From assembly GCA_010356995.1 (NCBI GenBank), contig ML996706.1, forward strand, positions 230,574 to 250,573: DNA of 20,000 bases, written 5' to 3'. This document shows positions 1 through 20,000 of this stretch, in pieces. A program made the position numbers and the translations under genes. Source of the DNA: Trichodelitschia bisporula. Its lineage: Eukaryota. The first letter of the stretch is position 1. Every line of letters begins with the position of its first letter. The notes beneath the pieces were generated by a model. The model had not been told where the DNA came from. It ran no database searches and saw nothing but the letters and a program-made list of their open reading frames with translations.

Positions 1-3000
1 GATGTTACGGGCACACTTGCGCTCGGCACCTGTCTTCGCGCGTGGTTGCCCAAGTTTGGCGACTGTTATCTCGACTACATGCGCGCGCATGCCCACTTCC
101 CTAAGTACATGCGTAGCTACACCGCGGCCAAGTCGAGCTTCTCTAAGCGCGTCCAGGACACGGGCGAGCAGCGCCTCATGTCCATGCTCATTGAGCCGAT
201 CCAGCGTTTACCACGGTACAACCTCTACATCGACAGCATCATCAAGCAGCTACCCGAGCGCCACCCGGCTTTAAAGTCCCTCCTGAAGGTCCGTGACACC
301 ATCTCTGAGATCTGCTCCTCCGATGCTGGAGACGCCCAGCCCTCACGCATCAACGACAAGCTTCGCAAACATATTGCCGGTTGGCCGTCCTCATTCCGCT
401 CATACGGCCGTCTCGTCACTGCCATAGATGTCGCTGAGATCCCGCCTCCGTACCGGCCTGACCCCAACAGCGCCACCGCCACCCCGGGCATCATGCTCCT
501 CTTTACCGAGAACATCGTCCTGCTCACAAAGTCCCACCGTACCGGCCTCACAGCCCGCGGTCTGCTCTCGCGCCTCGACGGCACCGATGTCATCGATAAG
601 GAGGATGCACCGCCGGCGCAGGAGCTGCGCTTCAATTACTCGCTCGACCTCCACAGCTTTGAGTTCACTGAAGTCGACGGTGGGAAAATGATCCAGCTCG
701 CTCCGACGCATAACCCGACTTTCCAACAGCGGCCCGGCAGCGCCATGAGCCTTACTCGTCCCACCTCGCGCGCCATGTCGCGGCCGGCATCGCGCGCCGG
801 CGACAATGATGTCCAGGTCTACTATCTGACGGGTGCGTACGAAGGCAAGGCGGCAAAGGTAGTGGAAGAAGTGGTGAGAGCGCGCACGGAGAACCGGTTC
901 CCGGAGCAGGAGCGCGAGAGTCCGGAGTGGGAGGTGCGGCTGGCTCACGGCCCAGACCTGAATCTCTTTACCGCTGTGTACCAGGATGGACCTGCGCCTG
1001 AGGGGCGGGGGAAGCCGGCGAAGGTGCGAGTTGTTATTGGGAAGGCGGATTCCGCGCCTGCGGTGCGGGATGAGGGTGTCGAGGTCGTGGTTTACGTTTC
1101 GGCGACGCGTGAGGGCCTTTATCTCCTTGAGATTGAGGGTGGGAAGGAGGTTTCGCGTGACAGGTTGACTGTGCAGGAGTTCCTGCCCGTGCTGGTCAAG
1201 CGGCGTAAGTTTTTTTCTTCTGTCGAGCAAGACTCGTATGCTAACAATCACCAGTTGGCAACATTCTTCAAATGCGTAGCCAGATTCGTAATCCAGCTAT
1301 TGCTACCACGCTCCTCCTCCGCAACCAGCTCGTCCTAACCAACCTCAAAATCACCACCGAAGAGCAAATGGACCCGCAGACCAAGGACCGCGTCACCGCC
1401 GCCCAGCGCCCGCACTCCCCCGTTAAGATGCTCTCCAATCTCTTCGGCGGCTCCATCACCCGCGACCACGGCAGCTTCCGCAAGCCGCCGCTCACCCACA
1501 CAATCTCCGGCCCTTCCGGCCTCGGCAACATTCCTCACCTGCAGCCTAGCTCGCGACCCACGTCGCAAGAGGGACAAGCGTCGCAGGAAGGGCCCGCCCG
1601 CTCGCCGTCCATGCTTGTCAAGACGACGCGTGCTGCCGCCGACGTGCTCGAGAAGCTTGAAGAGTCGCTGTCGAGCTACGTTCTCGCGCTGCATGCGCGG
1701 CGAGGCAATATTGTGGGCAAGGTGCTGCGCAACCGGACCGCCACGGCTGAGGAACTGGCTGTCAACGAGCTGTACAACAAGCTGCTCGAGGACCCGGCAA
1801 ATATGGAGTTGGTGGCTAATGCGCCGGTGGACGTACTCTTCTGCGCGTTTGAGCAGTTCCTCAAGATTGCATGGTGCGACAAGATGGGCCCGGTCATCTC
1901 GGTGGCTGCGTGGAGCGCTATCCTCGCGAAGCTCGATGCTCTGTATCCTTCCGACTTTGAGGAGTTCTTCCGCATGCGCATCGCCGAACTCGCACCGCAG
2001 AACCAGCGCGCGCTCAAGTCTATCATCAAGCTGCTCGTTAGTTTGCTTGAAGGCACGGGCAACGACGGCGACAGGGGCATGTTAACCGCATCCTTTGCCG
2101 AGATCCTCGTTCCCGACGGCAACCCGCTCGACTTCATCCCCGTGCTAGATCGGCTCGTCGAAGACTCAACAACACTGCTCGACAACCCGCGCCCGACGCC
2201 CTCCGGCTCGCTCTCCGGCCCCCCTACCCGCACAACCAACTCCGCCTCTCTAACCTCCAACACCTCCTCCCTCCGCCGCAAATTCGGCCTAGGTCTCAGC
2301 CGCAAGGGCTCCAAGCACGCCGACGAAGACCTGTCGAGCAGCGTCTGGCGCACCCTCTCCAAATCAAAGCACGAGAGCCCCACGCCCTCCCTCTCCAAGA
2401 AACCCTCGCACCTCGTCCGCGCCTCCTCAACCGACTCCCCGCGCGCTCCCTCCCCCAAGCGTCCCAGCTCCCGCGACCGGCCTACCGTCCTCGGCGGCGC
2501 ACCCTTCGATCCCGTTCCGAACTTAGGCTTAAGCACAATCGGCGAACACCCCACCGCCGGCCCCCCGCGCAAAAAGCGCCGATCCAGCCTCTCAGACCTC
2601 CTAACCCTCCAAGCCGCCGGCAACCAGTTCGGCACACCTGTCCGGAATAGTCCACGCCCCAGCCCCCGCACACCCAAGCAAAGCTTCATCCCCACCCCCA
2701 CCCCCACCACCCCCCTCAGCCACTCCTTCTTACGCAACGCCTCTACTCCTACCGGAACCGGGGCTGGAGCGCAAGCCACACCCACCCGAGCCCTCCCCCG
2801 CCCCGTCTCACAATCCAAGCCCAAAGACGAAGTCACGATTACGGCACGCCGTCCTGTGCCGCGCCACACGGCGACGACGAGCGCGAGTGGAATTCCGCAG
2901 CTTAGGCCCGCTGGGTTGGTGGATCGGGCGGGGGCGGGGAATGTGAGGCGCTTGCCTGGGTCAAGGGACGGGGAGAAGGTGAGGGAGAAGGTGAAGGAGG

Positions 3001-3692
3001 AGATTGATCCGGCGCTGGCGGTTGCGCCGTTGAAGGTTGGTGGGGGAAGGAAGGAGGGTCCTGCGACGGGGGCGGGGGCGGGGGCGGGGTCGGGTCCGGG
3101 TACGCCTGCGGGTGTGGGTGCGGTATCGGCTGGTGCCTCGACTGGCACTTCGGACCCCTCTGCTCGGCTCCGGATGGTCGGTCCGGCGAAACTACGCGAG
3201 CGGGTCACTGCCGCCAAGACCGAAACCGCGGCTTCAGCCGGCGCGCTGGCGGAGGAAATGGCGCGCATAGGCGCCGAGCTCTCAACGCTGTCACGCGCCT
3301 CACCGCCGCGGGGCCAGAGCCACAGTCTCGCAACGCTGAGCGCGCGTCTCAGCGCGCTGGAAACGCGGCACACGGCGCTGATGAGCGAGGTCGAGGCTAA
3401 GCTAGACGGGCTGGCGCGGGATGTGAATGAGACGCTGATGGTGTCCGAGGCGCGGTGTCGCAAGTTGGATGGGTTGCTTAGGGATGCGGGGGCGGAGAAT
3501 GAGGGATTGTATGCGCGGTTTAATGAGGAGATGGCGCGCGTGACGGCGAGGGTTAGGGGCGGGGAGGGGGTGGAGGAGATGAGAAGGCGGGTGAGGGAGG
3601 GGGAGGATGAGGGGAGTAGGTTGAGGAAGGAGAATGCCCGCCTCAGGAGGGAGGTTGGGGGGTTGAGGGCACAGTTGAGGCCGGGAGTTTAG
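1..3692 (+). CDS. bud3: Rho guanine-nucleotide exchange factor (DH/PH), Bud3-like; 5'-partial; exons <1..1204, 1255..3692
   Basis: Frame 1 is open from base 1 and carries the DH motif LMSMLIEPIQRLPRYNLYIDSIIKQLPERHP. A 50-nt intron 1205..1254 (GTAAGT, GCTAAC, CAG) joins ORF 46..1338 in frame to ORF 1272..3692 (KR-L-GNILQMR). It is followed by an S/P-rich region and a C-terminal coiled coil. 1213 aa are visible. RhoGEF is secure; Bud3 orthology rests on recalled architecture and is less certain. Confidence 0.85.
3068..3100 (+). repeat. (GGGGGC)n microsatellite / G-quadruplex motif inside the RhoGEF CDS
   Basis: GGGGGCGGGGGCGGGGGCGGGGTCGGGTCCGGG, encoding GAGAGAGSGPG. Confidence 0.7.
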
Positions 3693-4337
3693 GGGTGTGG
3701 TTTAGGAACTGTGGGTTAGGGGGAGTTGGGGGCTAGGTCATCATGGGGCCGGCGTCATCTGTAGCGTATGGGTTAGGTTACTCGGTTCAGCATTGGGCCG
3801 GATGGATAGACAACGAAGTGTTTCTGAGCATCACCGATCGCGGTGTCGTCTTCATCAAACTCTTCACTTCACACCATAGCCATTGCACGTATCAAGCCTA
3901 ATGCTTCCATTAGCATCACTGGCCACGGTAAAGGTTTCCTTGCCACGCCGAAAGCAATTAGTCACTTTGAGCGCTGTTATCCATGCCGCAGGCTGACAGG
4001 GTTACAGGTCGAGGACGACAACACGGAACACAGGCAACGGTTCATCAAAATGTCGTGATATATTCAGCCTGCCAATCCATAGGAGGCGGCTCATGCTCGG
4101 TCCATACACAAGCGCCCTTTCCAGCGCAGCAGGACATTCTCAGTCCATGCAATTGTCTCCCGCCATATACACTCCCCCTCCCTACCCCACCACCCCGCGC
4201 AGCGCATCCAGCACCGCACCAAGCACCTTCCCAGCCGGACCAGCAACAACCGCCAGCGCCGCACTCTCCGCCTCCGCCGACTTCCCCGCCGCCCCCGTCG
4301 CCCCCATCTCCACGGCTCCCGCCGCACCGCCATGCAG

Positions 4338-5576
4338 CTACCTCTTCTTCGGCGCCACGCGGAGCTGCTTCGCCCCGCCATCGAAAACCACATACTGCGT
4401 CTTGAACATGACGTCGCCGTAGATCTGCAATCCCGCTCCGCCGTTGCTCTGCACGCCCCCGAAACACGTTCCCGTGTCTACTTGCGCGAAGGTGATTTCT
4501 GACCCCGGAATCATGGCCATGTAGTTGTTCCCCAGCGCGACGCCGAAGTCGGGGAGCGTGCTGGTGCATGGGTAGGTGAAGCCGCCGACGGTGGCGTCGT
4601 TGGTTGCGCCGGGCACTTGCTTGTAGTAGGCGGTTGCCACTTGCGGGTCGACGAGCAGGAGGCTGGTGCCCGTGTCGGCGATGGCGGGGGAGGCGTTGGG
4701 TGTGGCCACGCGCTGGTTGCCGATTTGGATCGCGGGGGAAGTGACCTGCCAGAAGCCGCTCGCCGAATTGACCGGGATGTTGGTCAGGGTGCCGGAGAAC
4801 TTGCTCTGATCGATGGCGCCGAACAAATAGCTCCCTGTCGAATCATTCCTGAGATCGACAGAGAACACCGGGAGGGCGAGTTGCGGCATAATGGAGTCAA
4901 AGAACGTCGTCTGCTTGGTCGGCTTCACGGTGTTAAGCTGGCTAAACGCGAGCCCGACCAAGCCGTCATTGTTCGCATCCTTTACGAAACTCTGGCTCAC
5001 GGCCGTGGCCAGCTCAACCGCCTGCCGCGTCGCCGTCGCGCCGCCGATGTTCACCACGTCCATGCCCACCACGCCGGCCGCGCCGCTCCCGTCTCCGTAG
5101 CTGATTTGCCAGCTTGCGCCAGTCATGGCCTTGAAGCTAGTGGACTTGGAGGGATCGAACGCAGCATGGCCCCCGATGGTGCGCTGCGAGAGAGCGGTGC
5201 TGAACACCCACAGGTCAGACGAGCCGGTGTCGAAGTCCAGCACCAGCGTTTGCCCGCCGATGACCACGGGGCTCAGGAACTCGGCGTCGTTGGGCTCGGG
5301 AACGGCAGGGACTTGGCCTGTCGAAGATCCGGAACCGGTGGCGTTGCCCGCCCCGGCTCCGGAGCCGCGGGTGGAGTTGGAGGTTTGGCGGGCGGTGAGG
5401 GTGAAGCCGTATTTGTTGTACGCTTTAATCAATGCGTCTGAACCCGACCGGGGGTGTCGGTTGATTTGCCGGCGGACGTGGTGCTCGAAGGAGCGCTTTT
5501 TCAGCGCTGGGGTGGGGGATGTGGACCCGAGGCTGAGGAGGGAGGCGAGGAGGGTGAGGGTTGTGAGGGTGTGCAT
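4338..5576 (-). CDS. Secreted pepsin-family (A1) aspartic endopeptidase, aspergillopepsin/penicillopepsin-like, 412 aa, intronless
   Basis: Both catalytic motifs are present (LDFDTGSSDLW, IADTGTSLL), with flap ISYGDGS, DGLVGLAF and IYGDVMFK. ATG 5576 (context ACCATG) starts a signal peptide MHTLTTLTLLASLLSLGS followed by a basic propeptide (LKKR). The ORF-track ATG at 5624 adds 16 non-signal residues. Confidence 0.95.
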   Translation of the reverse strand: MHTLTTLTLLASLLSLGSTSPTPALKKRSFEHHVRRQINRHPRSGSDALIKAYNKYGFTLTARQTSNSTRGSGAGAGNATGSGSSTGQVPAVPEPNDAEFLSPVVIGGQTLVLDFDTGSSDLWVFSTALSQRTIGGHAAFDPSKSTSFKAMTGASWQISYGDGSGAAGVVGMDVVNIGGATATRQAVELATAVSQSFVKDANNDGLVGLAFSQLNTVKPTKQTTFFDSIMPQLALPVFSVDLRNDSTGSYLFGAIDQSKFSGTLTNIPVNSASGFWQVTSPAIQIGNQRVATPNASPAIADTGTSLLLVDPQVATAYYKQVPGATNDATVGGFTYPCTSTLPDFGVALGNNYMAMIPGSEITFAQVDTGTCFGGVQSNGGAGLQIYGDVMFKTQYVVFDGGAKQLRVAPKKR

Positions 5577-6424
5577 GGTTGCCTCGTGGTGCTGCCGGCA
5601 GCGGGTATCGGATAAAATGTACAAGGAAAGGAGACGGTTGGGACCGGCCTTTAACGTTCGAATGGACAGAGGGAATGTATGGACAAAGGCCTTGAAGCTC
5701 GCAAGGCTGAGTTGAGGCGGGGGTATCTACAACGAGAGAGAGGACAACCAGGTCCCGCGTCTCTTTAGAGTCAAAGAAGAACAAAGAAGGGAAAGGGAAC
5801 ACACAGCACGACCAGGCGCCGTCTACAAAGAAAGATATCAGAGGGAGGGAGGGAGAGAGAGCGGCGGACGAAGCGTGCATCACAGAACAAAGCAGCGACG
5901 TAGCTGCATCTTATCTCCGCGCCTCGAAACACCCGCGCTGGGCGACGCATCCTACCCGCAGCGTAAAACAGCATCTGTACGGGGCGCAAAAGCTGCCCCA
6001 CCTGGTGTGCGCGGCATCACGCCCGCCGGCGCATACTACAGGAACCTCACAGTGTCGCTGGCCAGGTGAGGTTGCGGCTCCCACGCGCGGCCAGGGGGCA
6101 CCCCCCTCCGCGTCGCAGGCTGGCGCCGCGTCAGGGGCGCGTCCGCGGCGGCGCCATCGGTTGGGCGGGACGGGGCGCGGCGGTCGCGGCGTGCGTTTCA
6201 CGGCGTGTTTAGGGTGTCGGGCCGGGTGGGGAGCTCGGGGCTTGAGATCTGGTGAGAGAAGCTTTCGTAGATTATTTTGCGTGGCACGGGAGAAATTGAT
6301 CGGAGGACAGATCTTGTGCTGCTACTGCCATTGCAGCTCGTGATGATCGCATCTGACGATGGGATACATCCGTAACCTAAAATGTCTATCGCCTTTGTTC
6401 ACGCCGCGCTTCGAGTCTTTCCTT

Positions 6425-6448
6425 CCTTTCTCCCTTTCTCCCTTTCTC
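6425..6448 (+). repeat. (CCTTTCTC)x3 tandem repeat in a pyrimidine tract
   Basis: Read directly from the sequence, within a CT-rich stretch at ~6417..6480. Confidence 0.7.
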
Positions 6449-7100
6449 CCGCGTTCCTCACTCTCCTTTGTCCCCCTCGCCCTCGCATCGCCAAACGCAT
6501 CAAACCCCCCCCCCACCCCGCGGCGCCAACTGCCTCACCAGTCCCTCGGCTTGCCAAGCTCCCGCCCGGCGCACCCGCACCTCCCCCCAAGACCCTTCAT
6601 CCATTGGCCCACAGCGCTTTGCACCCTTCTCCCTACCAATTCCACACTCTCCAGATCGAAAAAGCGTACAACTTTAGAATCATGTGACTTGTGATCCTCT
6701 CATTTCGGTCCTCCGGCCGCCGGAGCACGAAGCGCGAGGCTGGACGGGCCGCGTCATTGGTCTGGAAGCAGATACATCGCGGTACTGACGCTCGGCATGG
6801 CGAGGCTGCGGCCCAATGGGTCGCGGTTGCTGGTGTGGGGAAAGAGGTACCTCCGGGCGCCTTGATGCTTGGACGAAGAACAACCCACCAGACACGACGA
6901 GCAAGTTTCAGGAACCCATTTGTCACTTTTTCGTTGTTGCTCAGAATCTAGGCTTGTCCTTCATCTACTCTAACAGCCGAATCAGATCATCAGATCCCTC
7001 CCCGCATCGCAGTGTCCATTGAAAAGACAACAATCACAAATCCACCATCCCAAACGCCTCGTGTTCAACCTCTATTCCCCACATGTCGTTATCGTCGTCT

Positions 7101-8276
7101 TTACTTGCTCGTGTCCAGCACATACCGCCCCGCAATCTTCCCTGCCTTCATCAACTCAAACACCTTCGGCAGCTCTGACAGCCCAGCCACCTTGTAGGGC
7201 GCATTGATGAGGCCGCGCGCAAAGAAGTCAATCGCCTCGGCGCCGTCCCGGCGATTGCCCACATACGACCCCTTGATGTTGATCATCTTGGTGACGGTGG
7301 AGAAGACGTCGGCCTTGAGGCTTGCATGTGCCGGGAGGCCGATGCACACGACGCTGCCACGGGCGCGAACATACTAAGCCCTCGTTAGCCTAGAGTAAAA
7401 GAAGCCAGAAAACAAGATACTCACATCCGCAGCCTGTTGGAACGGCTTTTCCGACACAGCAAGGAGAATAACCGCATGCGGACCCAGCCCATCCGGGCTC
7501 GCCTTCTTGACATCCTCCACCAGGTTGGAGCTCTTGCTGAAATCCACAAACGCTCGCGCTCCCAGCTCCTCGCACATCTTGCGCTTGTCATCACCCGCGT
7601 CTATCGCAAGCGTCTGCAGGCCCATCGCCTTCGCATACTGCAGCGCCAGACTGCCGAGGCCGCCACCGGCGCCCACAATGGCAACACACTGCCCGGGCTT
7701 CGCGCCCGACTCCTTCAAGCCCTTGTAGACAGTAATGCCGGCGCAGAGAATGGGAGCCACGGCGTCGAGGGGAACATCCTTCGGGATGATGGACACATGT
7801 GCCGCCTTCGCGACGCAGTATTGCTGGAAGGTGCCGTCGACAGTGTAACCCGAGAGCGACGCCTTTGCGCAAAGCTATAAAAGACACTCATATCAGAACC
7901 CCTTCTATCCATTACTGAAGTTAAGAAGACTCACCGGCTCATCTGACGCCTCGCAAAAGTCGCACGACAAACAGCTGCCGTTCAGCCACTTGACGCCGGC
8001 ATGGTCGCCGAGTTTCACTCGCCCGTTCTGGCCCGCCATCTCGCCGAGAGCGACGACCACGCCCGCGCCCTCATGCCCGCCGACCAGTGGGAGCTTCACA
8101 TCCAGAGGCCAGTCGCCCTGCCATGCGTGCAGATCCGTGTGGCACACGCCGGTGTACTTGATGTTCACGAGGACTTCATCGGGGCCCGGGGTGGGGACGG
8201 GGATTTGCTTGTATTCGAGGGGCCCGTTGTGGGACTCGAAGACTTGGGCCCATTGGGTTTTCGGGATGTCGGTCAT
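7101..8276 (-). CDS. adh1: Zinc-dependent medium-chain alcohol dehydrogenase (ADH1/AlcC-like), 354 aa; exons 8276..7935, 7874..7425, 7373..7101
   Basis: Motifs [15 protein letters not shown], structural Zn [27 protein letters not shown] and C-terminal GRYVLDTSK. Phase-0 introns 7875..7934 (GTGAGT..TAG) and 7374..7424 (GTGAGT..GCTAAC..TAG) join three ORF fragments in frame. Confidence 0.96.
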
Positions 8277-8348
8277 TGTGGAGGTAGAGGAATCGGTAGG
8301 TGTCTTGGTGTTGGTTGTGGTTGTTGTTGTTGCTGTTAGCAATTATAT

Positions 8349-8398
8349 CTGCTTCCCGTCAGTGTCCGACCAGCGAATACTCCGCACTCCAAACGCAC
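8349..8398 (-). other. Probable 5'-UTR intron of the ADH gene (50 nt)
   Basis: On the minus strand: AAG|GTGCGT donor, CTGAC branch site, CAG acceptor. It lies between the TATA box and the ATG and matches the size of the other introns here. Confidence 0.55.
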
Positions 8399-8444
8399 CT
8401 TCTCGATTGCTGTGATGATGCATCCATGACGTCCCAAGGGACAC

Positions 8445-8452
8445 CTTTTATA
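8445..8452 (-). promoter_or_regulatory. TATA box of the ADH gene
   Basis: TATAAAAG on the minus strand, ~170 nt upstream of ATG 8276, inside otherwise GC-rich sequence. Confidence 0.65.
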
Positions 8453-8713
8453 CCCGCGTCCCACCCAGCACCTTCCCCTCGCACCTTCCCCGCCATCCAC
8501 CCCCCTCCCGTCCCTTCCAAGGGCGGAAAACGACCCCATCACGCCAGATCACCGCACTATCTGCACCATCATCCCGGCCCAAACCCCGATAACCCACAAT
8601 CCCATCACTATCCCGCCCACGTTCGGCCATCGTTATCCACTACCGTACGCTTAGGCCTACCGTAATGAGGAGAAACGGTACGGTATGTCGTTCGACCGCC
8701 GGTCTCGATCCAT

Positions 8714-8723
8714 ATCACCCCAC
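8714..8723 (+). promoter_or_regulatory. SREBP-type sterol regulatory element (ATCACCCCAC) upstream of ADH
   Basis: Exact match to canonical SRE-1. Near matches ATCACGCCAG (8538..8547) and ATCACCGCAC (8548..8557) lie nearby in tandem. Confidence 0.45.
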
Positions 8724-9219
8724 CGATCAGCGCGGCCCCACGCATTGGCGAACCACCCAGCGCCCGCAACGCCCACATGCTGGCGTCCTAACCGGACCGA
8801 GCAGCGCCTGGGCACGGATTGGCCGAGCGGGGGCGGGTTCGTAGCGCATTCTCAACGTGCGTTGGCGTGAGGGGTACGGTACGTTGGCGGGACGTTCAAG
8901 TTCGGAGGGCTCCGGGCTGATACGGTAGGTAGTTGTGGCTGGACCCGGGTGGCGCCTTCGCCGCGGAGCTCTCGGCGGGCTCGGCGCGGGCCGAACGGCG
9001 GGCTCGGCGACGAAAGGTCTAGATCATCTTTAGCGGTAAATAATGCATCACGGCGCAAAGCGTAGCATGAAGCACGACTACAGATTATCCATTATGATAT
9101 ACTCGCTAGACCACGCCCGTTGCTCAGTGCGCATTCCACACAAGACACTCCGAAACACTCCAACGAAAGAGGGTATCGCACGGCCACCGTTCCAGCAAAA
9201 AATAAGCAACTCGCACAAC

Positions 9220-12037
9220 CTAATGGCTCTCCGCCATCAGCCGCGTCTTGTCCTCCCAGTACAGCTTCGACATGAAATCGTCATTAACAACCATCTTGTT
9301 CTTGGGGTCTAGCGTCGCTCCTTCATCTGACATCCACAGCCCCTTCACCTGCGACGTGCTGTCCGCCACCTCGCGCGCACTCACCCCGCCCTCATCGCGC
9401 GGCACCACGAGGCGCGGCGTGTCCGTCCACACCGAAGGGGGAAGGTACGCATCGCGGACAAGGCCCTCATCCACGTCATCCGACTCCGTAACGAGCGCAG
9501 GAACAAGGCGGCGCATCGTGGCGTAGTCGCAGTAGACATGGGGCTTGAGGAACTTGGCCACAATCCCAGGCTTCTTGCGCGGCGGCGGCTGGTCCTCAAG
9601 GGTTTCACCCGGCGCGTCGCTCTCCAACAGCGCGGAACGCTCCTCATCCTCCAGCGTCTTGGGCAGGTAACGTAGCAGTGGCGTGATGGCTGAGTTGAGC
9701 CCGACGTTGTACAGCGCCGTGAAGATAACAAGCAGGATCATCATCACAAACGGCCCGATGGTACCCTTCTTGTCCAGTCGCGTTGCGAACAGGCCCAGCA
9801 GGCAGATCTCGGCAATGTACATGCCGACAAAGAGCTGCTGCAGCGCGCGCGGGTACACGAGCCCCCGCGTGTCGACTCCCGTCGAGTAGACGTAGAGCAG
9901 GTTGTAGCGGTAGGCAAAGTAAAAGAGGTACAGACCAATGGCAGCGAAGATGAGCACCAGCGGCGCAATGCACGCGTAGCACATGGCGATAACCAGCAAA
10001 TTGGTGTACACGGGGTATACAGTACCCCAGCCTAGTCCGGAAAGCTGGTTCCACCGCATGAAGAGCTTGCGCGGCGTCGAGCCCAAGATCTTCGCGAGCA
10101 AGGGAGTGACGATCAGACCTGCAACTCCGACCAGCATACCCGCAAAGACACCGAGGCCCTGCAGGACAAAGTAGCTGAGATAGAAGTTGGAGGCCTTAGG
10201 AATCTGCTTCGAGAGCAACGACGTCACACTCGTCGGGTTTTTGATGATCTGCGAGACCGCCGACGAGGCGGCAGACGCAACTGTCGCAACCAAGAACACC
10301 TGGACGACTTGGAAGGCAAAGTAGTAGTTCTGCACCGTGTATTCAACGTCCGAGTGCGTGGGCGCGCCGCCTAGTCTCGCAGCAAGGCGCAAAATAATGG
10401 GTAGCAACGCCATCAGGACAGCCAGCAAAACAACTGGCAGGAGACCCGTGACCACACCCAAAATTGCAGTGGGGATTTTGTTGATGAAATCGAGCCAAGG
10501 CAGCTTGTCGGTGAGGTAGTTGATGTTTGAAATGGCGCCGACAAAGGCGACAGGAATGGACCAAAAGATGACGAGTCCTACGACGAAGGAAAGGGTCGCC
10601 ACCTTGCGCAGCATACGCTCCCAACCGCGGATGCGCAGATTCGACCAGATGACGTCGAGAGGGTGGACACCGGTGAAGCGCGGCGCCATGGTGATAATCT
10701 GGTGGTGGGTCAAGCTCTGGAAAGCAGCTTGCGCCTCGCGAATGTTGATAAACTCGACGAACACGGCACGCAGCTTCCTGGCTTCTCCCCTCCGGTGCTT
10801 ATCCTGCTCATGTTCGACTTCGGGAATCATTTTGTTAAGCTCCGCGCGCGACCATTCAATGGTGTCGACCTTCTTGCCGATTAGAAACTTCAGGCGGTGC
10901 GTCGGACGGTCCTTAGGGCGGACCCAGCGCGCGGCTCCTTCGTGGGCAGCTTCAATTTCCCCACTGTTTATTCCATCGGTAGCAGCTTCGGCATGAGACT
11001 TGGGATGTGCTGTGGTCGCCTCATCGTGTACAGCACCACCCTCAGCTTTAAGGCGCGCGGCATTGGCCAGCCGGATCAGCTTTGTCTCAGCACCCTCAAG
11101 GCCGTAGGCGATTTTGTTGCGCTCCTTCACCAAGTCATCAAGCTCTTTGGTGTCGGTTGGGAACCAGACGCGCTTCACGTGGCTTCCGAGCATTTCGCGA
11201 AGCTTAGCCTCGTTGAGGTATTCGTCCGGCACTGCGGTGAAGAGCACGGTGCGTGACGAAAGCTTCCGCGCGTAGTTGGGAGACATGAGATACGCCTGGC
11301 GCAGGTTGATGTAGAAGACACTCTCGCGGGTAATCATGATCATGACGAAGCCTAGCTGGTTAACAATGCACATGCGTAGAGAGTCTGGTGCATACCGAAA
11401 AACAGCCATGCGCACCCAGCATGCGCAAAGTACTTCCAAGGGTTCACAACATTGCCGAAATTGAGCTTGTCCAGCTGTTGGTTCCCTCCTCCGCCAGTGA
11501 TGTTGATGGGGAACAAAACGGGCCACGTGATGGCGCATCCAACGAGGCAAATGATAACAGAAATCCTGAGGAATCGCAGGAATAGATAGCCATCGAGGCT
11601 CTGGTGGTTCAAAACGAAGGTATCTGAGATGCTAAACAGCTGCGGAAGCCAATTGAACAGACCCGCCTTCAATGGTGGAGTGTAGTCCCTGCAGCAAGTC
11701 AGAGAATGCTCATGCGATGGAGATAGGTTTTCTCACGATTCCCTGAGCAGCTTGGACCGCGTCCTCGGTGCGTACTTCCACGACGCCTTAGGGCGGATGC
11801 AGATGAAGACAGCGAGCCAGATGATGGCGATAACGGCGACGGGGGTCAGCGTCGACAAAAGGCTCGACGCAGAATTGGACTTGGGCTGGTTGACAGCAGA
11901 GCCAATGTTGCTATCGTCTTTCTCATTCTGCTTGCGATTAGGACGAAGAGTCCGAAAGTGTGCGCCTGACGTACCACGCGCTTGATCAGCATCTTAGCCG
12001 CCCCATCGAGCATGACGCTCGGAGTAAGAAGGGTCAT
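9220..12037 (-). CDS. CSC1/OSCA/TMEM63 family (DUF221; RSN1/PHM7-like) stress-gated cation channel, 892 aa; exons 12037..11975, 11927..11737, 11688..11396, 11351..9220
   Basis: Family motifs YAPRT, SLDGYLFLRFL, SSRTVLFTAVP, RPTHRLKFLIGKKVDTIEW, DVIWSNL, YFAFQVVQVFLV and YRYNLLYVY, with many TM segments. Introns 11928..11974 (GTACGT..CTAAT..CAG), 11689..11736 (GTGAGA..CTGAC..CAG) and 11352..11395 (GTATGC..TTAAC..TAG) keep frame. Start 12037 (AAAATG) is preferred over 12013. Confidence 0.92.
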
Positions 12038-13764
12038 TTTGTTCACGGTTCAATGCGCCGAACAAGGGAGTTTGCGGCAGCAGAAGCGCGAGCAGGCAAT
12101 TGAGTCGCAGCCCGCAATCGATTGCGGGTGCTCTTGCGACGCGGCAATGTCTAGCACCGCCGGATATGTTCAAAGTATTCCAAGGGAAGGGGGGAGTGAA
12201 TTGAACTGGGTGGGAAGGTGTTGGGTAGCTAGAAGTTGGAGCGAGGGAGCAGGTTACTGTAGGATATCTGAGCTTTGGGGTTGGGCTTTGGGGTTGGGCG
12301 GGGGGCGTGTTTGTTTAGGGCGATCAAAGCGCGATCAGGGAGGGCCAGGGCCTTGGCCCGTCATTTGCACTGACCAAGCCATGCCGTGGGTGCGACTCAA
12401 AGCAGCCATCCCCCTAGGCGCAACGAATTCAATAGGCTACAACTTCGATCAATGACGCCACTGGAATCTGACGTTTGAGTCGATCGCTTTTATTTCTTGG
12501 AACCTTTGGTGAAGGGTAAGAAATACTTTATCCCATTCAGGTCGGATACGTACAGTTTTTCTCTATAACTTCACGTAGGCCCGAGCGCTCTTTCCACTCG
12601 CCCAGGTCGCGATGGAGTTCCTTTCTCTCCATTCTCCCGTTCTTCCTCTCTCTCTCTCACAGCAAACTAATTTCACTAGATGCTCCTACGGCGAGGGCCG
12701 TCGACTTTGACGCCCGCCGCTCCACACGCCTAGCCTGCTCCATGGACCGCGCCACTGCCAGTCCACTGGAGGCTGGAACTAGTTGCGGCAAGCCGCCAGC
12801 CAACTTACAGGTAATTGGTCGGCAAGCTGCGTGCCATCTCCTCCATTCTCTAGCCCCGCCATTTCTTGCCCAGAAACTAGCCCAAACATATCGCGGAGCA
12901 TCCTGCGATGTCCGCACTGCATCGACGAAGGAAAACCCTTCGCGTAACGCCAGACTGCGGCATTTTCCAAAATCATTGACAACAACTCATAGCCTTGATA
13001 CTCGATAAGGGCTACGGGCAGTGCAACAACAACTGCAAATTTGCACATGGATACATGTGCAAGCGTTGAGTGTTACCAAGCCTTTGTTCGCTTCAGCTTT
13101 GGGCAGGAGCCCAGGGGCCACCCGAAAAACTCATGGCCGCATCTCCGCGGTAACCTCTGCGAATTACTTGAGCAATGCCATTGGGGGGGCAGCCACGACT
13201 TTTCTAAGTGGCCTTTGGGCCGCGAGTCGAAATGGTTATGATCGGCTGAATGCAGTCAAGCCAGTGCCCTGAAAGAGCTAGCGTGCGGTCGTGGATCCAC
13301 AGATTGCGTCTGTGGCTTGTACACCAGTCCCGCAGGTTGTTGATCGTGGCCCATGAGGCGCAGCATCCTCTATCTCTTCGCATAGCCACACTTTGACGTT
13401 CGCCTTCTTTGTTGCAGCGTCAAAACCTCCACCAACCTCTATCTCCACGGCGTCTCCGAAGTCTAGACCGCGGACCTGGGCCTTCTTCGCATCTTCGACG
13501 CACCTCCAAACATACCATGACTTCAGCTTGAGGGGGGAGGTGCAGATTGGATGCGACCTTACTCGACCATCGACTATGCATTGTGGCACACCATCACATG
13601 AACCGTTGCAGTGCCTTCCCGCCGGATGCACAAGTCATTTGCGGATGACGGGCCAGTAACTGATTTTGCAGTACTATGGTGCAGCAGGTATCCAAACGGC
13701 TCTGCGCGCTCGACTCCCATCGCACCAGCCACCCATTGGTCGATCCTTGTCGCTTGGTTGCAAC

Positions 13765-15438
13765 TCACGCTCGCGGTGTAACCGCCTTCCATGGCTTCAG
13801 GGACTCGGCAAGTGGTTGAACAACTCCCGCATACACAGCCTCGCGAAATCTCTTGTCCAAGAGGTTTGGTCGAGGCTCAAATGCGCAGTCCAGACATCGC
13901 CTTACCACATCGTCAAGCTGAGCCCCGCATTCGCTAAGCACTCGCTTTGCCCAGGTTCGCGCCGTACATACATCTGTGTGATCATTGGGCTTATTGTCTG
14001 GCCCATAGTACCTGCCACGGAACTCGCAGGATTCGATGGTGTGGCCGAAGATCAGCTCGAGGGTGATGATACCGACGGCAAATAGCGCTGCCCGAGTGTC
14101 TTCTTCCGATGCTGTCACAGGCGGATCCGATTCTATCGTATCCACCCTTATGGAGGGGTATGTTTGGGGTAGATATGGGCAAACGCCAAAAGAACCCTCG
14201 GAATCTGTCTGGAAGAGGAAATCCTGTTTCGACCATTTCTGGGGAGCCCAAGGCGACATCTGGACCTGGAGAAGTGTGGATGCGATGTGGAAGGCCATCT
14301 CAAGTCGAAGATTTCTAGGTAAACGGATGTGATTCCACCTGTGCGCTTCGAGGAGCTGTGAGAGAGCCACCAGTTCTGACGAAGTTTGCGCTGCTGTTGA
14401 ATGTGGGTTGTGAGAGGTAAGGCGAAACCTTCTGTCATCCTCATCTGAGATAACTCCCGGCTCGAAATTTAGCTGTCGGCCTCTGCGCAGGTATGAACAA
14501 AGGTCTTCGATCACGTCAATGCCTCCATCACTGATGCTTTGAGCTGGGAGCGTAGGTGGGAGTTTTCCGGAAGAACGTCTAATTTCCGCCGTGGTCGTAG
14601 CGTGTTCTTTGACTGGACAGATGGCCACCTCCTGTCTAGCATCGTCCACTACAAATAGCACGTTAACCTCAACGACTTCCGGGTCCCCTCGCAACCCGAG
14701 ATTACTGCAGTGACCTCGACAACGTCCAAGTGAACATTTCCGGAACGCTAGGCGAAGGGCGTTGTGCAAGTTGCCTACATGCTGGCGGACTTTTTCAAAC
14801 AACTCCACTGGAGGCGAAGTCTGCCTTGATTCCTCGATGAGGTTAATGCGCCTGCTGCAACCAAGGGTCTGCTTGAGGGTGCGGTTGTGCGAGTCGAGTT
14901 TGTTGACTTTCTTGTACTTTCCTTTCGAAAAGCTAATCCGGATGCGCGTCAGATGCCATGCCCAAGAGCGCTCGCTTTGCGAATCAATCCAATCCACCTA
15001 AGAGGTAATATCAGCTGGCAGCCCTTCGCACACGTAGAGTTAGACACTCACCTTATTATCCTTGATCTGCAAAAGCTTTTTAAGTTCTTCTACCAGGTCG
15101 TGCATCTTCTGGATGATCCTCAGGACCCTCTCATGTTCGCCAGCCAGATGGCGCTCGAGATGAGTTGTAAGACTGCCATCCGACCAGCGGGCGTCATTTG
15201 GGTTCTTTACCAAGTCCGCGAGACAATCGTTGTCCTGAATGATGGGGTGTAGCATCTCCATCATGTTACTGTTGTACATCATTTCTTGATGTCGTATGCC
15301 GTCGGCGAACTCGATAAAACGTGTCCGGAAACGCCACCATTCTGACAGTGGCTCACAGCTTTTGCGATAGTAGTCGAGACAGTTGAGGATGATTGGGAAC
15401 GCTCCCAGGACGAGGCCGGCAACTTCAACTCCCGACAT
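13765..15438 (-). CDS. Fungal protein with a HeLo/HET-S-like N-terminal helical domain and a C-terminal degenerate kinase-like (DUF7580-like) domain, 539 aa; exons 15438..15052, 14997..13765
   Basis: It starts MSGVEVAGLVLGAFPIILNCLDYY, typical of fungal HeLo-like/STAND-associated N-termini. Phase-0 intron 14998..15051 (AAG|GTGAGT..CTGAT..TAG) joins two ORFs. C-terminal motifs are RLEMAFHIASTLLQVQMSPW..WSKQDFLF, LFAVGIITLELIFG, DVVRRCLDCAF and FREAVYAGVVQPL. The gene model is strong; domain names are from recall. Confidence 0.85.
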
Positions 15439-15783
15439 TGAGAAGCTGAGGACATGCAGGCAGAGTGGGGACAGCACGTTGGGTTTCGAGCCGTGATAAA
15501 GAATCCATGCTGACTCGGAGATTAGAAGCAGAGGCCAATAGGAATCGACCACGGAGGGGCAGCGTTCAGCCTCATTGTCGAGTACCGTGCGGGGTATCTC
15601 CATCCCCGCATTCATCACATCAGCACCTTGACACCGTTTCATTGGCCGACTCATTCCCATTCAAGATTCGGCGACTGGGACTTGGGTCCACCTCAGAAGC
15701 TAACCACCTCAGCCCTACCGTACTGTATCTCTCCCATCATTCATGACCTAGGACTCCTCATCTCTTGCGGGACGCAAGAATAC
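15439..15783. promoter_or_regulatory. Putative bidirectional promoter (345 nt between divergent ATGs)
   Basis: The two start codons, 15438 (-) and 15784 (+), diverge with 345 nt between them, the shortest intergenic gap in the window. Confidence 0.55.
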
Positions 15784-18700
15784 ATGTCCATTCAATCCTT
15801 CATGGAAGCCACAGGAGATGGTATTCCGGACTGGGCAGGAAAATGTCGTGAGGGTATCAGCGGCCTGCTCGCAGCCGTGATTAACCCTTCCTCGCCACGA
15901 TATCCAATCTTGGAGGTCGAGGCAGTCCAAACAATACAGGAGCGATATGATCACTGGACCGGATATCTAGACGCTCTCAAGGATGCCGTGGATCCCTCTT
16001 CGCTTGACTACCGTCTTCGCGACACTCCGACAGTGAAGAGTGCCATTCTTGACATCCTCCTTGACTTGCACAAGTCCCTAGAAGCCGGTAGGCCGCCCAG
16101 CACAGAGGCAGGCTAGAAACTGATGGGGCTAGCAAATGATATTGTCCTTGGCGAAAGGGAATGCAGGGTTTGGAGCGGTCCGGTCGTGACTGAGAATGAA
16201 GACCTTGACGAGTTCGACATTTCCTCTACCGAATCCGATACGTCCTCATTTCGCAGCCCAGGCCACGACGCGAACAGTTCAGCTCCCACTTCAGAGATCC
16301 AGGAGCTCATGTCAGCTATCAAAGTCAGTCTCGACAGCTTGTTCAAGATCACTCAGTTCATTCCCAATTCTACCTCCTGGGACCGACGCGCTCGAGCGGC
16401 GACGATAACGCCGTCCGACAGTACGGCAGATATCATTCTTGTTCAGGACCGTTTTCCTTCACTAGCAAAAGCCCATCCCGCGCTTGCCATTCGGATAGGT
16501 GAGGCAAACGCGAGGCGCCGACAATACTTCAGGTACCGTCGAAGTCATCATGAGCGTTTGTCGGCAGATGAGCATACCCAGGATCAGGTATGGGACTCTG
16601 CTCCTCTCGAGCCGGCCATGTCAACACTTTCCTCCGCTACATCCATAACTGAGGCTCCTAACGAAGAACTGGCATTTCCTCCGATACCTACAGACGCTGA
16701 ATCTGGTACCCGTTTTCTTTGTCCCTTCTGCTTTGAGTACCAAGAGCCCCAACTGGGGGATTTGCAGAAGGCTTGGAGGTAAAGGTTTTGGGCGCTCCGT
16801 ACGACGCTCGTAGAGCTAACTGAGTCTTAGAAAACACGTCCTTGACGATCTGGAGCCGTACATCTGTACATTTTCCCCGTGCACACTAGACACCTTCAAC
16901 TCGCGGCGCGCCTGGTTTGAGCATGAACTTTTGGCACATCGCCACCGGTGGCTTTGCCAACACTGCCTCACATACTTCACATCGCCCGACAACCTCGCAG
17001 TACACATATGCCTGGAACACCTTGACACGGTACAGGGCTCGCAAGTCCAAGCCATAGTCGAACAGTCCAAGCGAAGAATCGAATTCATCCAACCAGCCGA
17101 ATGTCCCTTTTGCGACGTCTCCTGGGCCGAAGCCGACCGGAACCGCAACGGGGACCCCAAGCCATCCATCGTTAGTTTGGACGAATTCGAGCGCCATGTG
17201 GGCCACCACATGCAGCAAATTGCCCTATTTGCCCTCCAAAGCCCAGCCCAGCATGTCCACTCGATGAGCCCTCAGCGGATTTCAGATCTAGACTCCATTG
17301 AGGTGCCTCTGACACAGCAACAAAAGGCCCATCCAGATGACCCCTTGAAACGTTCGGAAAATCCCACGAATGCTGTTGATCTCGACTCCAGCCCCATACC
17401 TAGAGAGGAGATTGGGCAAGCTGCTGATATGGATGTCTGGCCAGACCGGGACGACGAGGTTGAACCCCTCGGCTTCGGTGAGCCTCATTCTTGGCATTCT
17501 GCCCCGCTGTTGAGCTCAGCTCGAAGCCCCAAAGCCTCGCCTTTAACCTCCAGTTCCACTCCTGCATTTTCAAAAGTCCGCAATTTCTCGACTAGCATCA
17601 TTATTCCCGAGATGCCAGCTGCAAAGCGGATCCGGACACGGGGCCGCTTCCGTGCCTCTTCCAGTCTTTCACGACCCTCCTCACCTGATGCTGGTGAGAC
17701 CACCACGCCTGCCCCCACGAGCAGTGTCGGCCAGACCTCGGATTGGATGCTGAAAGAGAGCCTGACTCAGTCCAACACCAGACGCCAACTGAAGCGCGAG
17801 GAATATACAATAGGATGGATATGCGCCCTTTCGATCGAACTCGCGGCAGCCAAACAGATGCTAGACGAAGTGCATCAGAATCTCCCTTCAAATGAGGCCG
17901 ATTCCAACACCTATGAGCTCGGCCGCATCGGTGAACACAATGTCGTGATTGCGTGCCTACCCGTAGGCCAAATGGGAACGACTCCAGCAGCCTCAGTTGT
18001 TGCCCGAATGCAATCAACCTTCAGCTCGATTCGGTTCGGCCTGATGGTGGGCATTGGAGGTGGTGTGCCGAGCAGCAAAAATGATATTCGGCTGGGGGAT
18101 GTTGTTGTGAGCCAACCATCCAATGGGCATGGCGGAGTAATTCAGTACGACTTTGGGAAAACAACACCAGACAAGTTTGAGCGGACTGGCTTCCTGAATT
18201 CACCTCCCATCGTCTTGCTGAATGCAGTAGCGAATATGAGGGCCAATTACGATCTGGGAGGGAAGATCTTGTGTCACCCTACGCAACTGTCCCGTCAACC
18301 TTTATTTGCACGGGAGAATGCCGGACCGGATGTTTTATACCGCGCTGACTACAACCACGAGCAACCCGGTACTAGTGATTGTAGTGAATGCAAGACGGAC
18401 TTTATCAAACGGCGACAGCCACGTGGTAATGATTTTGTCATTCATTACGGCACCATAGCATCCGGAAACCAAGTTGTGCGAGATGCCACGACAAGGGACA
18501 GACTCAGCAAGGATTTTGGAGGCGTTCTTTGCTTTGAGATGGAGGCGGCGGGGCTTATGAACCATTTCCCCTGCCTTGTTGTGCGGGGCATCTGCGACTA
18601 TGCCGACTCGCATAAGAACAAGAGCTGGCAACCGTATGCGGCAGTGACGGCAGCTGCATATGCGAAAGAGATCCTGTTGTCGATACCGGCAGCCGAAGTC

Positions 18701-20000
18701 GAGACAGGATCATCTGCGGTTGAGGTGATGAAACAAAATCTCGGTAAGTGGCTTTTACCTTTCTATGATGGTAGTTGTCATACGGTAGGGAAGAGAGGGC
18801 TAACCGCTGTCATTAGAATTCAATAAGGTCCTCGGTAAACTACCCACTGCTGTGGATACGCCGTTCAATGTACGCAAACGAGAACACGACACTGCCTGCC
18901 TTCCTGATACCCGTGTCGCACTTCTCAAGCAGATATATGAATGGGCTGATGGCATGGACTCCCCAAATATATTCTGGCTGAGCGGGTTGGCCGGCTATGG
19001 CAAGTCTACGGTTGCGCGAACAGTGGCCGCCAGATGTTTCAAGAAAGGCCTTAGCGCCAGTTTCTTCTTCACCAAAGGCGGCGGAGATGTTGGCCACGCC
19101 GGCATGTTTGTTACAAGCATCGCAGTGCAGCTTGCAAATAATGTGCCGGATCTAAAGCCGGTCATTTGCGATGCCATCGCCAAGCACAGCAACATCGCAA
19201 GCCTGTCTCTACGCGAGCAGTGGGACCGTCTTGTTCTCGCTCCTATATCGCTGTTTGGAACCGATCAATCCACTCCAAAATTTCTCCTGATTGTCGACGC
19301 TCTTGACGAGTGCACAGATGAGAGCGATGTGCGGATCATTCTTCAGCTTTTCGCCGAACTTCGAGGATCGCACCAAACCAGGCTCCGAGTATTTCTGACG
19401 AGCCGACCCGAAGCTCATATCCGGGATGGGATTCAGCATATACCAGAAGTGGAGCACTACGACTTTGAACTGCATGGCATTCAACAGTCGGTTGTCGAAC
19501 ATGATATCCGCGTTTTCTTAGGGCACGAGTTTCGCCGTATTTCCTGCAAGTACTTTGACCGCACTAACTGGCCAAGCGAGCAGATCATCAATCGTCTTGT
19601 TCAGAACGCAAGTGGCTTGTTCATCTGGGCTGCTACGGCATGCCGCTTTATTAGTGAAGGGAAACAATTCGCCGCCGACAGACTGGATTCGATCTTGGAC
19701 CAAGGCCATACCGAGGGGAACACTCCGGAGAAGCAGCTCAATGATATCTATTCTACTGTTCTCGAGCAAAGCATTCCTGCAAGCTTTTCGGAAAAAGAGA
19801 AGGAAAAGCTGCGGTCTATGCTGAAATCTCAACTTGGAAGCATTGTAACCTTATTCTCTCCACTTTCCACCCACTCCTTGAGCAAGCTGCTCAACATCCC
19901 ACAGAATGATGTGAGTCAGACAATGAGTGATCTTCACGCCATTTTGGACATTCCGAAGGAACCAGGTTACGCACTCCGTTTACACCACCCTTCATTCCGT
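15784..20000 (+). CDS. Fungal NLR (STAND): helical N-domain, C2H2-like zinc fingers, PNP_UDP nucleoside phosphorylase, HET-E-like NACHT; 3'-partial; exons 15784..16087, 16133..16778, 16831..18743, 18817..>20000
   Basis: Introns 16088..16132 (GTAGGC..CTGAT..TAG), 16779..16830 (GTAAAG..GCTAAC..TAG) and 18744..18816 (GTAAGT..GCTAAC..TAG) give one frame of 1349 codons. PNP motifs are YTIGWICAL, GIGGGVP, IRLGDVVVS, HYGTIASGN, CFEMEAAG and RGICDYADSHKNK. Hand translation of exon 4 gives CLPDTRVALL, Walker A WLSGLAGYGKST, Walker B LLIVDALDEC, VFLTSRPE, ASGLFIWAATACRFI and LHHPSF, with no stop to the window end. Confidence 0.9.

Follow-up and report, generated by a model that had tools for sequence, protein, structure and literature searches.

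The window analysed here, a stretch of 20,000 nt from Trichodelitschia bisporula (contig ML996706.1, positions 230,574 to 250,573), carries two divergently transcribed genes. The minus-strand gene encodes a helical protein with a kinase-like DUF7580 domain (hereafter the partner), and the plus-strand gene encodes a zinc-finger module joined to the PNP_UDP and NACHT domains of a NOD-like receptor (NLR). We conclude with high confidence that the linkage of the two genes is conserved, that it centres on the zinc-finger module and that the C-terminal part of the module gene is swapped between fungi; this confidence extends to the anatomy and the splicing of the two genes. The conserved neighbour of DUF7580 is the zinc-finger module rather than the NLR part.

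Both genes are intact and spliced, and the open reading frame listing together with the splice signals puts their start codons 345 nt apart (15439..15783). An earlier sequence-only reading of this DNA had described two intact genes diverging over this distance, and the exons, the spliced contigs and the spacer all agree with it. The partner gene product has 539 amino acids (aa) and, in a search with exon 2, was identical to the database protein P0001, labelled as a DUF7580-domain hypothetical protein of T. bisporula. The spliced plus-strand product consists of 1349 codons, stays open through the last base of the window and matches the stored protein P0084.

Conservation of the DUF7580 neighbourhood

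Seven loci were found when metagenomes were scanned with a DUF7580 alignment, and only two of them (L001 and L006) retain DNA upstream of the DUF7580 start. The tblastn searches with both window proteins revealed a homologue of the N-terminal extension of the plus gene in this upstream DNA, on the opposite strand, in both informative loci. L006 matches residues 13-124 and 150-302 of the plus gene, and its translation runs to FLCPYC at the contig end, while L001 matches residues 48-104, after which the contig ends. The minus strand of L001 reads MGDQRIPE...YDQWAGNLGAL...SLEHRLRD, and its DUF7580 protein starts with MLTGIEVAG on the plus strand, leaving a spacer of 249 nt. When the whole NLR was used as the tblastn query, only the N-terminal extension was matched in the seven loci, and no match to PNP_UDP or NACHT was seen in any of them.

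A search with the zinc-finger region yielded 41 module proteins among 79 candidates. Six of the 41 lie on contigs equal in size to those of DUF7580 hits (n = 42), namely 21615, 157513, 2277756, 12263, 8277 and 8098 nt, and the last three of these shared contigs are small. In annotated genome records, consecutive accessions denote adjacent genes, and the GenBank protein accessions were consecutive in all three named pairs looked up: OCL13569 and OCL13570 in Glonium stellatum, KAK4155957 and KAK4155958 in Chaetomidium leptoderma, and KAI8635427 and KAI8635428 in Xylariaceae sp. FL1651. The confirmed neighbours carry differing extra domains: none in the Glonium protein P0043, WD40 repeats in the Xylariaceae protein P0061, and ankyrin repeats in P0048 and P0056.

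The sequence-only reading had proposed looking for recurrence of the adjacency and for congruent phylogenies. The adjacency does recur in other fungi, but the constant neighbour is the zinc-finger module, without the NLR. As for congruence, the pairwise identities of the partner and of the zinc-finger region correlate over seven pairs (Mantel r 0.59, a value reached by 30 of 5040 permutations), which fits co-inheritance, although shared species history alone would give the same result.

Two irregularities were seen in L006. Around 1150-1440 of this locus, the DUF7580 relative is distant, with 30% identity over the N-domain, and it lacks a recognisable MSG-type start. The neighbour's extension contains one N and an apparent frame change. 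The sequence may be of low quality here, or the copy may be decaying.

Swapping of the C-terminal part

According to the precomputed Pfam assignments, at least 11 of the 41 module proteins carry ankyrin repeats behind the module, at least 7 carry WD40 repeats and at least 17 carry nothing further; TPR, peptidase S8, NB-ARC, RhoGAP, alpha/beta hydrolase and PF26118 occur at least once each. Because the searches were word-seeded and length-limited, these counts are lower bounds. A search for longer proteins gave three out of 26 candidates, namely the protein of the window, one carrying TPR and one fused to a protein kinase. The hmmscan analysis verified ankyrin in P0048 and P0056, WD40 in P0061, TPR in P0085, Pkinase in P0086, NB-ARC in P0067 and S8 in P0064. 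The PNP_UDP-NACHT combination stands behind the module in one of the 44 module proteins found, that of the window itself. This cassette is a local, lineage-specific addition to an existing module gene.

Transcript contigs and expressed copies of the NLR cassette

Contigs from two runs (X1 and X2) of one sample, representing ~70% of the sampled words, were used for the examination of splicing; the run type is unrecorded, and that the runs are RNA is our guess. In each run, one contig spans 13500..17538 (to 17391 in X2), including the spacer, and shows three joints at the predicted intron borders. At the joint 14994/15049, 54 nt are skipped (CT..AC), at 16086/16132, 45 nt (GT..AG), and at 16776/16829, 52 nt (GT..AG), in both runs. 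Since the precise loss of introns from both strands in one contig is the pattern of unstranded cDNA, we read these data, if the runs are RNA, as suggesting that both genes are expressed and spliced in the sampled material. The contigs carry no information on transcript starts, strands or levels. No joint was present among the contigs for intron 3 of the plus gene, where cover is thin, and this intron is drawn from the sequence signals and P0084.

The contigs look different over the NLR part. From 17406 onward, many short contigs with 95-99% identity are stacked over the PNP_UDP-NACHT part; in X1, 48 of the 67 pieces over 17406-20000 are 95-99% alike. The summed word depth reaches ~4900 there, compared with 133 over the unique contig upstream. 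At 17481 (in both runs) and at 18073, loose ends indicate copies that have the PNP_UDP-NACHT part in common but differ in their upstream sequence. As many expressed near-copies diverge at these two points, the PNP_UDP-NACHT part appears to belong to a young, expanded multi-copy NLR family of T. bisporula. Meanwhile, the unique contig passes 17481 and ends at 17538. Because the expressed paralogues start sharing sequence at 17481, the fusion junction of the zinc-finger module and the NLR cassette is likely to lie near this position.

We also considered that the zinc-finger module and the NLR belong to separate genes. This was rejected, as the frame is stop-free over 16831-18743, which makes the two parts one reading frame, and as the unique contig crosses the branch point of the paralogues.

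A further joint, 19885-19970, at which 84 nt are skipped in both runs, has only 27 letters on its shorter side. Because of its ends (GC..TA), it is not an intron; it perhaps comes from a paralogue with a 28-codon deletion. On the 3' side of the partner, the spliced contig reaches 961 letters past 13500 (window ~12539-13500), so that sequence beyond the partner stop is represented, as either a long 3' untranslated region or another transcript.

Domain composition of the plus-strand gene product

The Pfam searches identified PNP_UDP_1 (E 2.3e-13 on the exon and 3e-12 on P0084), NPHP3_N (PF24883; E 1.8e-28 and 4.9e-27, respectively) and NACHT (PF05729; E 5.5e-08 and 6.8e-07, respectively). The NTPase domain has an intact P-loop, as in fungal NACHT NLRs; a C-terminal repeat domain (WD40, ankyrin or TPR) of the kind found in such NLRs would lie beyond position 20000, where the gene leaves the window. 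The PNP_UDP-NACHT NLR recognised by the sequence-only reading is therefore present, but PNP_UDP starts only at residue 643, behind a 640-aa N-terminal module that this reading had left undescribed.

Residues 1 to ~455 form a separate conserved module, composed of an extension of ~320 aa and an AcuF-type C2H2 zinc-finger domain, and are collinear with the stand-alone 577-aa G. stellatum protein P0043. Exons 1 and 2 of the plus gene matched no Pfam family at E<=1. The precomputed table lists PF26082 on P0084, whereas the hmmscan run performed here gave no PF26082 row for this protein, so the assignment combines the table with conservation and with atlas features. In the atlas feature search, residues 1-458 score 0.97 against PF26082 clusters. 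Among 43 aligned proteins, the residues C329, C334, H348, H353, C359, C362, H375, C408, C411, H439 and H443 are near-invariant.

It should be mentioned that P0084 (1349 aa) stops exactly at base 20000 of the window, and that exactly this sequence occurs in public collections, whereas a contig overhang at 19996 extends the frame by 10 codons; the deposited gene model may thus be truncated.

The partner is a helical-bundle protein with a degenerate kinase fold

The partner matches DUF7580 (PF24476) with 53.8 bits (E 3e-14; gathering score 27 bits) over profile positions 5-318 of 319, and the precomputed table assigns DUF7580 to all 42 of its homologues, among which are proteins of Aspergillus and Fusarium species. 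The model of the whole protein has a mean predicted local distance difference test (pLDDT) value of 70.5. For residues ~200-535, the Foldseek matches listed are kinase or pseudokinase domains only, with probabilities of 0.98-1.00 and 10 of them at E<=1e-3. When the whole model was compared using VIA-align, 48 of the 50 matches listed were kinases, the best being TNNI3K with Z 9.2 (root-mean-square deviation (rmsd) 9.2, 198 aligned), followed among others by CTR1 (9.1), ILK (8.7), AtMLKL3 (7.9) and MLKL (7.7). These comparisons bear out the kinase-like C-terminal lobe that had been proposed from the sequence alone.

In HMMER searches, a broader family profile matches SYMRK, BIK1 and one further kinase at E 1.4e-3 to 2.7e-3; the narrow orthologue profile A1 found no kinase among PDB sequences, only a chance match to a ribosomal protein at E 0.78. 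The alignment with SYMRK and BIK1 places the HRD triplet at unconserved positions (P381-Q382-K383 in the window protein) and leaves DFG without a counterpart, although this mapping is approximate because the alignment is weak (E about 1e-3). The motifs of subdomains IX (...LFxVGVIxLELxFG...) and XI (...RRCLDCxFxPRP...) are retained. Since the catalytic HRD and DFG aspartates are absent, we read the DUF7580 domain as a putative pseudokinase of the TKL/RLK type.

The partner is shorter (539 aa) than six of its orthologues (P0003, P0005, P0006, P0015, P0018 and P0035; 607-646 aa). The T. bisporula protein is without most of the low-complexity insert located between the N-lobe strands and a conserved D-LCS motif. 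The remnant of this insert (window 14150-14300 region, residues ~255-290) corresponds to the low-confidence model segment 261-285.

The product of partner exon 1 (129 aa) matched no Pfam family at E<=1. A phmmer search against 1.84 billion representatives gave 1119 matches at E<=1e-3, of which 277 also reach E<=1e-10 and 21 reach E<=1e-30. Among the 57 matches of at least 330 aa (of 150 listed), DUF7580 is present in 43, the other 14 have no family, and no different family exceeds its cut-off; as judged from this domain content, the N-domain and DUF7580 travel together. Residues 1-190, modelled alone with 135 sequences (pLDDT 93.2), are predicted to form helices at 3-28, 34-63, 70-78, 91-122, 141-151 and 157-189. 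In the first helix, G3, E5 and P15 are conserved in 99% of the 135 aligned members, L11 in 96% and G8 in 94%, and its mean Kyte-Doolittle hydropathy is 1.5 (residues 6-24), whereas the remaining long helices average -0.5 and -0.7. The hydrophobic first helix that characterises the HeLo/MLKL four-helix-bundle superfamily is thus predicted in the partner, and its insertion into membranes is putative.

In the atlas feature search, a HeLo cluster ranks second for the N-domain (score 0.94, with 177 of 256 features shared), and HeLo clusters make up 8 of the nearest 30; the atlas structure search with partner residues 1-190 gave only template modelling scores below 0.5. The VIA-align comparison of the N-domain gave Z 7.0 with the MLKL four-helix bundle (rmsd 3.0, 99 aligned), 6.4 with HET-S HeLo and 6.3 with AtMLKL3, and among plant NLR parts Z 10.4 with Sw-5b SD, 8.2 with the coiled coil (CC) of Rx and 7.5 with MLA13 (plant CC range 7.5-8.2), all of which are values that helical bundles reach by common arrangement. 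These results suggest that the N-domain resembles HeLo/MLKL domains in layout, membership of the family being a lead only. The partner as a whole has an MLKL-like layout: a helical bundle with a hydrophobic first helix, and then a catalytically degenerate kinase fold.

The partner frame is free of stops over the 74 codons that precede its accepted start (15439-15660, minus strand), where in-frame ATGs occur from 15660 onward, and the RNA-derived contigs cover this part. Because the homologues begin at MSG, with M present in 79% of the aligned members and G3 in 99%, these are probably ATGs of the 5' leader.

Coupling between the two proteins

The sequence-only reading had seen no amyloid motif in either protein. 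In agreement with this, hhalign of the two family alignments found no common region (best probability 0.15), and the partner chain extends just 11 residues beyond its final helix. As the two families share no region, the alignments argue that amyloid templating of the HET-S/NWD2 type is excluded.

A complex of the whole partner with plus-gene residues 1-458 was predicted without the family alignments, and the output named no interface. The median score was 0.48 (runs 0.47, 0.48 and 0.75) versus 0.00 for the best of three controls, but it belongs to an error-prone band. Of 78 solved complexes, 51 attain the pass mark, as do 2 of 108 mismatched pairs; passes with scores <=0.60 comprise only 5 of those 78 complexes, and all 4 of the mismatches that passed (of 180). 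The runs share at least 27% of contacts, and the partner pLDDT is at least 67. The sequence-only reading had proposed modelling the two N-domains together as a check; the complex computed here supports a contact weakly. Combined with the conserved adjacency, the prediction raises the odds of a direct contact between the partner and the module a little.

Interpretation of the pair

As the best-supported reading, we tentatively propose, giving the statement as a whole somewhat less than an even chance, that the two genes form a co-inherited unit of a swappable sensor, encoded by the module gene, and an MLKL-like membrane-directed effector. It would be a two-gene unit of Pezizomycotina, divergently transcribed from a short spacer, in which the product of the module gene would act as a sensor or regulator and the constant zinc-finger module, rather than PNP_UDP or NACHT, would contact the DUF7580 protein. 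The latter would deliver the output, most likely as an effector directed to membranes; engagement of its pseudokinase domain may release the N-terminal helix, as RIPK3-MLKL and the fungal NLR/HeLo and protease/gasdermin pairs suggest by analogy. Different lineages have attached differing C-terminal parts to the module (ankyrin, WD40, TPR, NB-ARC, protease, kinase or none at all), and in T. bisporula the attached part is a whole PNP_UDP-NACHT NLR cassette, which appears to stem from the young multi-copy family, with the in-frame junction likely near 17481. From the same analogies, we infer that the pair may have a role in cell death.

Several points weigh against this proposal. Death, membrane binding and contact enter it as inference only, and a C2H2 domain could equally indicate nucleic-acid binding or gene regulation. 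The recurrence comes from a handful of genomes, that is, the seven metagenome loci, the protein-search hits and the three named genomes. The identity of 40-54% that the partner keeps across fungal classes is above what is usual for immune effectors. The Foldseek search with the N-domain model gave nothing at E<=1e-3, and its VIA-align values stand within a band in which unrelated helical proteins reach 10.4. Neither HeLo (PF14479) nor HeLo-like (PF17111, Helo_like_N) nor SesA matched the window N-domain at E<=1, and none of the 57 N-domain homologues matched them at E<=0.01; sub-threshold HeLo matches were seen in 4 of the 135 members, with the best E of 0.036, level with Exo70_N and FapA. Thus, of the HET-S-like hydrophobic helix described by the sequence-only reading, the hydrophobicity and conservation stand, but the HeLo models remain unmatched. 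The complex score falls in a range in which most passes are erroneous, except where a contact was already likely before the prediction. Finally, a single mRNA running from the zinc finger through PNP_UDP-NACHT is supported only as far as 17538.

Some of these points would be equally at home in a regulatory pair outside cell death, in which a zinc-finger nucleic-acid-binding or scaffold regulator is combined with a modulating DUF7580 pseudokinase scaffold, for example in development, stress or secondary metabolism, and the NLR fusion is accidental. The module has three to four C2H2-type sites with near-invariant Cys and His residues, the DUF7580 protein is well conserved across classes, the N-domain fails the HeLo hidden Markov models, and pseudokinases often serve as scaffolds. 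The name of PF26082 also points in this direction, as we take the AcuF family to be named for a protein of a secondary-metabolite cluster. We nevertheless consider such a pair somewhat unlikely, given that the first helix of the partner is hydrophobic, glycine-spaced and near-invariant, that the nearest annotated look-alikes of the N-domain are HeLo clusters, and that the ankyrin/WD40/TPR and NOD parts of the module proteins are of the types that mark fungal NLR-like sensors in the available part of a 2025 review (PMC12881547). The linkage could also come from a bidirectional promoter alone, the products neither contacting nor signalling to each other; spacers as short as 249-345 nt, the single contig bridging the spacer and the weak complex prediction would all be compatible with it. 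Gene order decays fast between fungal classes, yet the pair persists in Dothideomycetes, in two orders of Sordariomycetes and in metagenome fungi, and the constant module is kept while the C-terminal part is swapped, which fits a fixed partner and makes the promoter-only explanation improbable.

The sequence-only reading had supposed that the pair is coupled in a different way from the amyloid systems, with the NLR itself as the receptor that activates the partner through a nucleotide-derived signal of its oligomerised PNP_UDP domain or through a contact of helical domains. PNP_UDP and NACHT are indeed present and intact in the window, and PNP_UDP is cited as a signalling module for cell death linked to immunity in the same available part of the review (PMC12881547). 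The recurrent divergent pair stands, but the coupling to the NLR as such or to a PNP_UDP signal is not supported: the confirmed DUF7580 neighbours P0043, P0061, P0048 and P0056 lack both domains, the metagenome loci match the N-terminal extension alone, the cassette is found behind the module in the window's protein only, and it has expressed copies with 95-99% nucleotide identity and different upstream sequence. We therefore hold this explanation to be quite improbable. Least probable of all, to the point of being hardly credible, is chance adjacency of two unrelated genes: head-to-head neighbours are common in gene-dense fungal genomes, but the recurrence in both informative metagenome loci, in all three named genomes and on three contigs of 8-12 kb contradicts it.

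Relation to known systems

The partner resembles MLKL and AtMLKL1-3 in its order of parts, with an N-terminal bundle that opens with a hydrophobic helix, then connecting helices and a TKL-type kinase fold without catalytic residues, and in the structural matches of the whole model and of the N-domain. It differs in that there is no membership at the sequence level and the N-domain Z values are within the noise band of helical bundles, and in that MLKL is activated by the active kinase RIPK3, whereas the linked gene here encodes a zinc-finger module protein. As in the HET-S/NWD2 and HELLP pairs, a modular sensor adjoins a protein with an N-terminal hydrophobic-helix domain, for which HeLo clusters are look-alikes; unlike in those pairs, there is no short common motif and no room for one at the partner C-terminus, the partner misses the Pfam HeLo and HeLo-like models, and the conserved neighbour is not an NLR. 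In the HET-Q1/HET-Q2 gasdermin/protease clusters, a constant N-terminal domain of the regulator is likewise combined with interchangeable WD40/TPR/ankyrin or NOD parts (PMC12881547, available part), but the constant domain here is an AcuF-type zinc finger instead of a protease and the partner is a helical-bundle pseudokinase instead of a gasdermin.

The plus-strand product shares with canonical fungal PNP_UDP-NACHT NLRs the succession of PNP_UDP and NACHT/NPHP3_N, in which the P-loop is intact. In contrast to them, PNP_UDP is preceded by the 640-aa module, so that the usual N-terminal effector domain is internal. The divergent arrangement over a short common spacer recalls the head-to-head sensor/helper NLR pairs of plants, but here one gene is an NLR, in this lineage only, and the partner has no NOD domain.

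In the part available of a study of Sordariales, zinc fingers are reported in 57 NLRs, in 5 of them as the sole N-terminal domain, and head-to-head NLR pairs are rare, making up 13 of 225 two-NLR clusters (PMC12258605). According to the accessible text of the 2025 review, fungal cell-death pathways are often clusters of two or three genes and some HELL domains occur in proteins with kinase or pseudokinase domains; that text names no partner or activation route for HeLo-like/pseudokinase proteins (PMC12881547). Neither zinc fingers nor pseudokinases are mentioned in the accessible portion of a 2022 survey of NLR N-termini (PMC9815663). Searches of the full-text literature found no paper under the names DUF7580 or acuF-like, although supplement tables might list such architectures, and the accessible parts of published work treating HeLo-like and C2H2 domains do not describe the pair.

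The locus and its relatives give a family of the pseudokinase-joined HeLo-like type a fixed genomic partner with the combinatorial architecture of immune sensors, and they provide the first context for two uncharacterised Pfam families, DUF7580 and zf-C2H2_AcuF. They also make the capture of an NLR cassette by a pre-existing sensor gene visible, and the control of an MLKL-like protein testable in a kingdom without RIPK3. To our knowledge, two couplings between adjacent sensors and executioners are recognised in fungi, namely amyloid templating onto HeLo-type proteins and gasdermin proteolysis. That the present pair stands for a third class of two-gene regulated cell death, in which a pseudokinase-gated counterpart of MLKL would be docked by a zinc-finger adaptor, is a rather unlikely extension of our proposal; if true, the swappable part would set what is sensed, and the zinc-finger module would be the fixed adaptor on the pseudokinase.

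Gene structure and surroundings of the pair

The coordinates of the exons, introns and domains of both genes, together with those of the other annotated genes of the window, are listed in Table 1.

Table 1. Features of the divergent gene pair and of its neighbours (window coordinates)
Feature	Position	Strand	Remarks
Partner exon 2	13765..14997	-	residues 130-539 and stop; brace-like helices and kinase-like DUF7580 domain
Partner intron	14998..15051	-	54 nt, GT..AG on the minus strand, in-frame TAA; joint in contigs of both runs
Partner exon 1	15438..15052	-	residues 1-129; opening of the helical N-domain with the conserved hydrophobic helix MSGVEVAGLVLGAFPIIL
Spacer	15439..15783	.	345 nt; candidate shared divergent promoter region; spanned by one spliced contig in both runs
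Plus gene exon 1	15784..16087	+	residues 1-101; first part of the conserved N-terminal extension, with ...SSLDYRLRD...
Plus gene intron 1	16088..16132	+	45 nt, GT..AG; in-frame TAG at 16114-16116
Plus gene exon 2	16133..16778	+	residues 102-317; remainder of that extension, and first Cys pair of the zinc-finger domain (FLCPFC)
AcuF-type C2H2 zinc-finger domain	16726..17245	+	~residues 300-455; PF26082 on P0084 (precomputed table)
Plus gene intron 2	16779..16830	+	52 nt, GT..AG, CTAAC branch site; interrupts the zinc-finger domain
Plus gene exon 3	16831..18743	+	open frame 16820..18826
Ser/Pro-rich low-complexity linker	17246..17806	+	stop-free; likely fusion junction at 17481
PNP_UDP_1 phosphorylase-type domain	17807..18628	+	residues 643-916; Pfam PF01048
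Plus gene intron 3	18744..18816	+	73 nt, GTAAGT...CTAAC...AG; excision yields the P0084 frame
Plus gene exon 4	18817 to beyond 20000	+	open at the window end
NACHT / NPHP3_N NTPase domain	18930..19493	+	residues 993-1180; Walker A GLAGYGKST, Walker B LLIVDALDE
Post-NACHT region	19494..20000	+	open frame leaving the window (...LRLHHPSFR)
Bud3-type RhoGEF with PH_BUD3_C	1-1338	+	Pfam; continues as a long Ser/Pro-rich frame to 3689
Pepsin-type aspartyl protease	4341-5726	-	Pfam
Zinc alcohol dehydrogenase, two exons	7377-8342	-	Pfam
CSC1/RSN1-type calcium-dependent channel	9223-11732	-	Pfam

By Pfam, the neighbours of the pair in window positions 1-11732 are ordinary genes. The G+C content declines along the window: it is ~0.60-0.67 over the initial 9 kb and ~0.50-0.55 where the gene pair lies.

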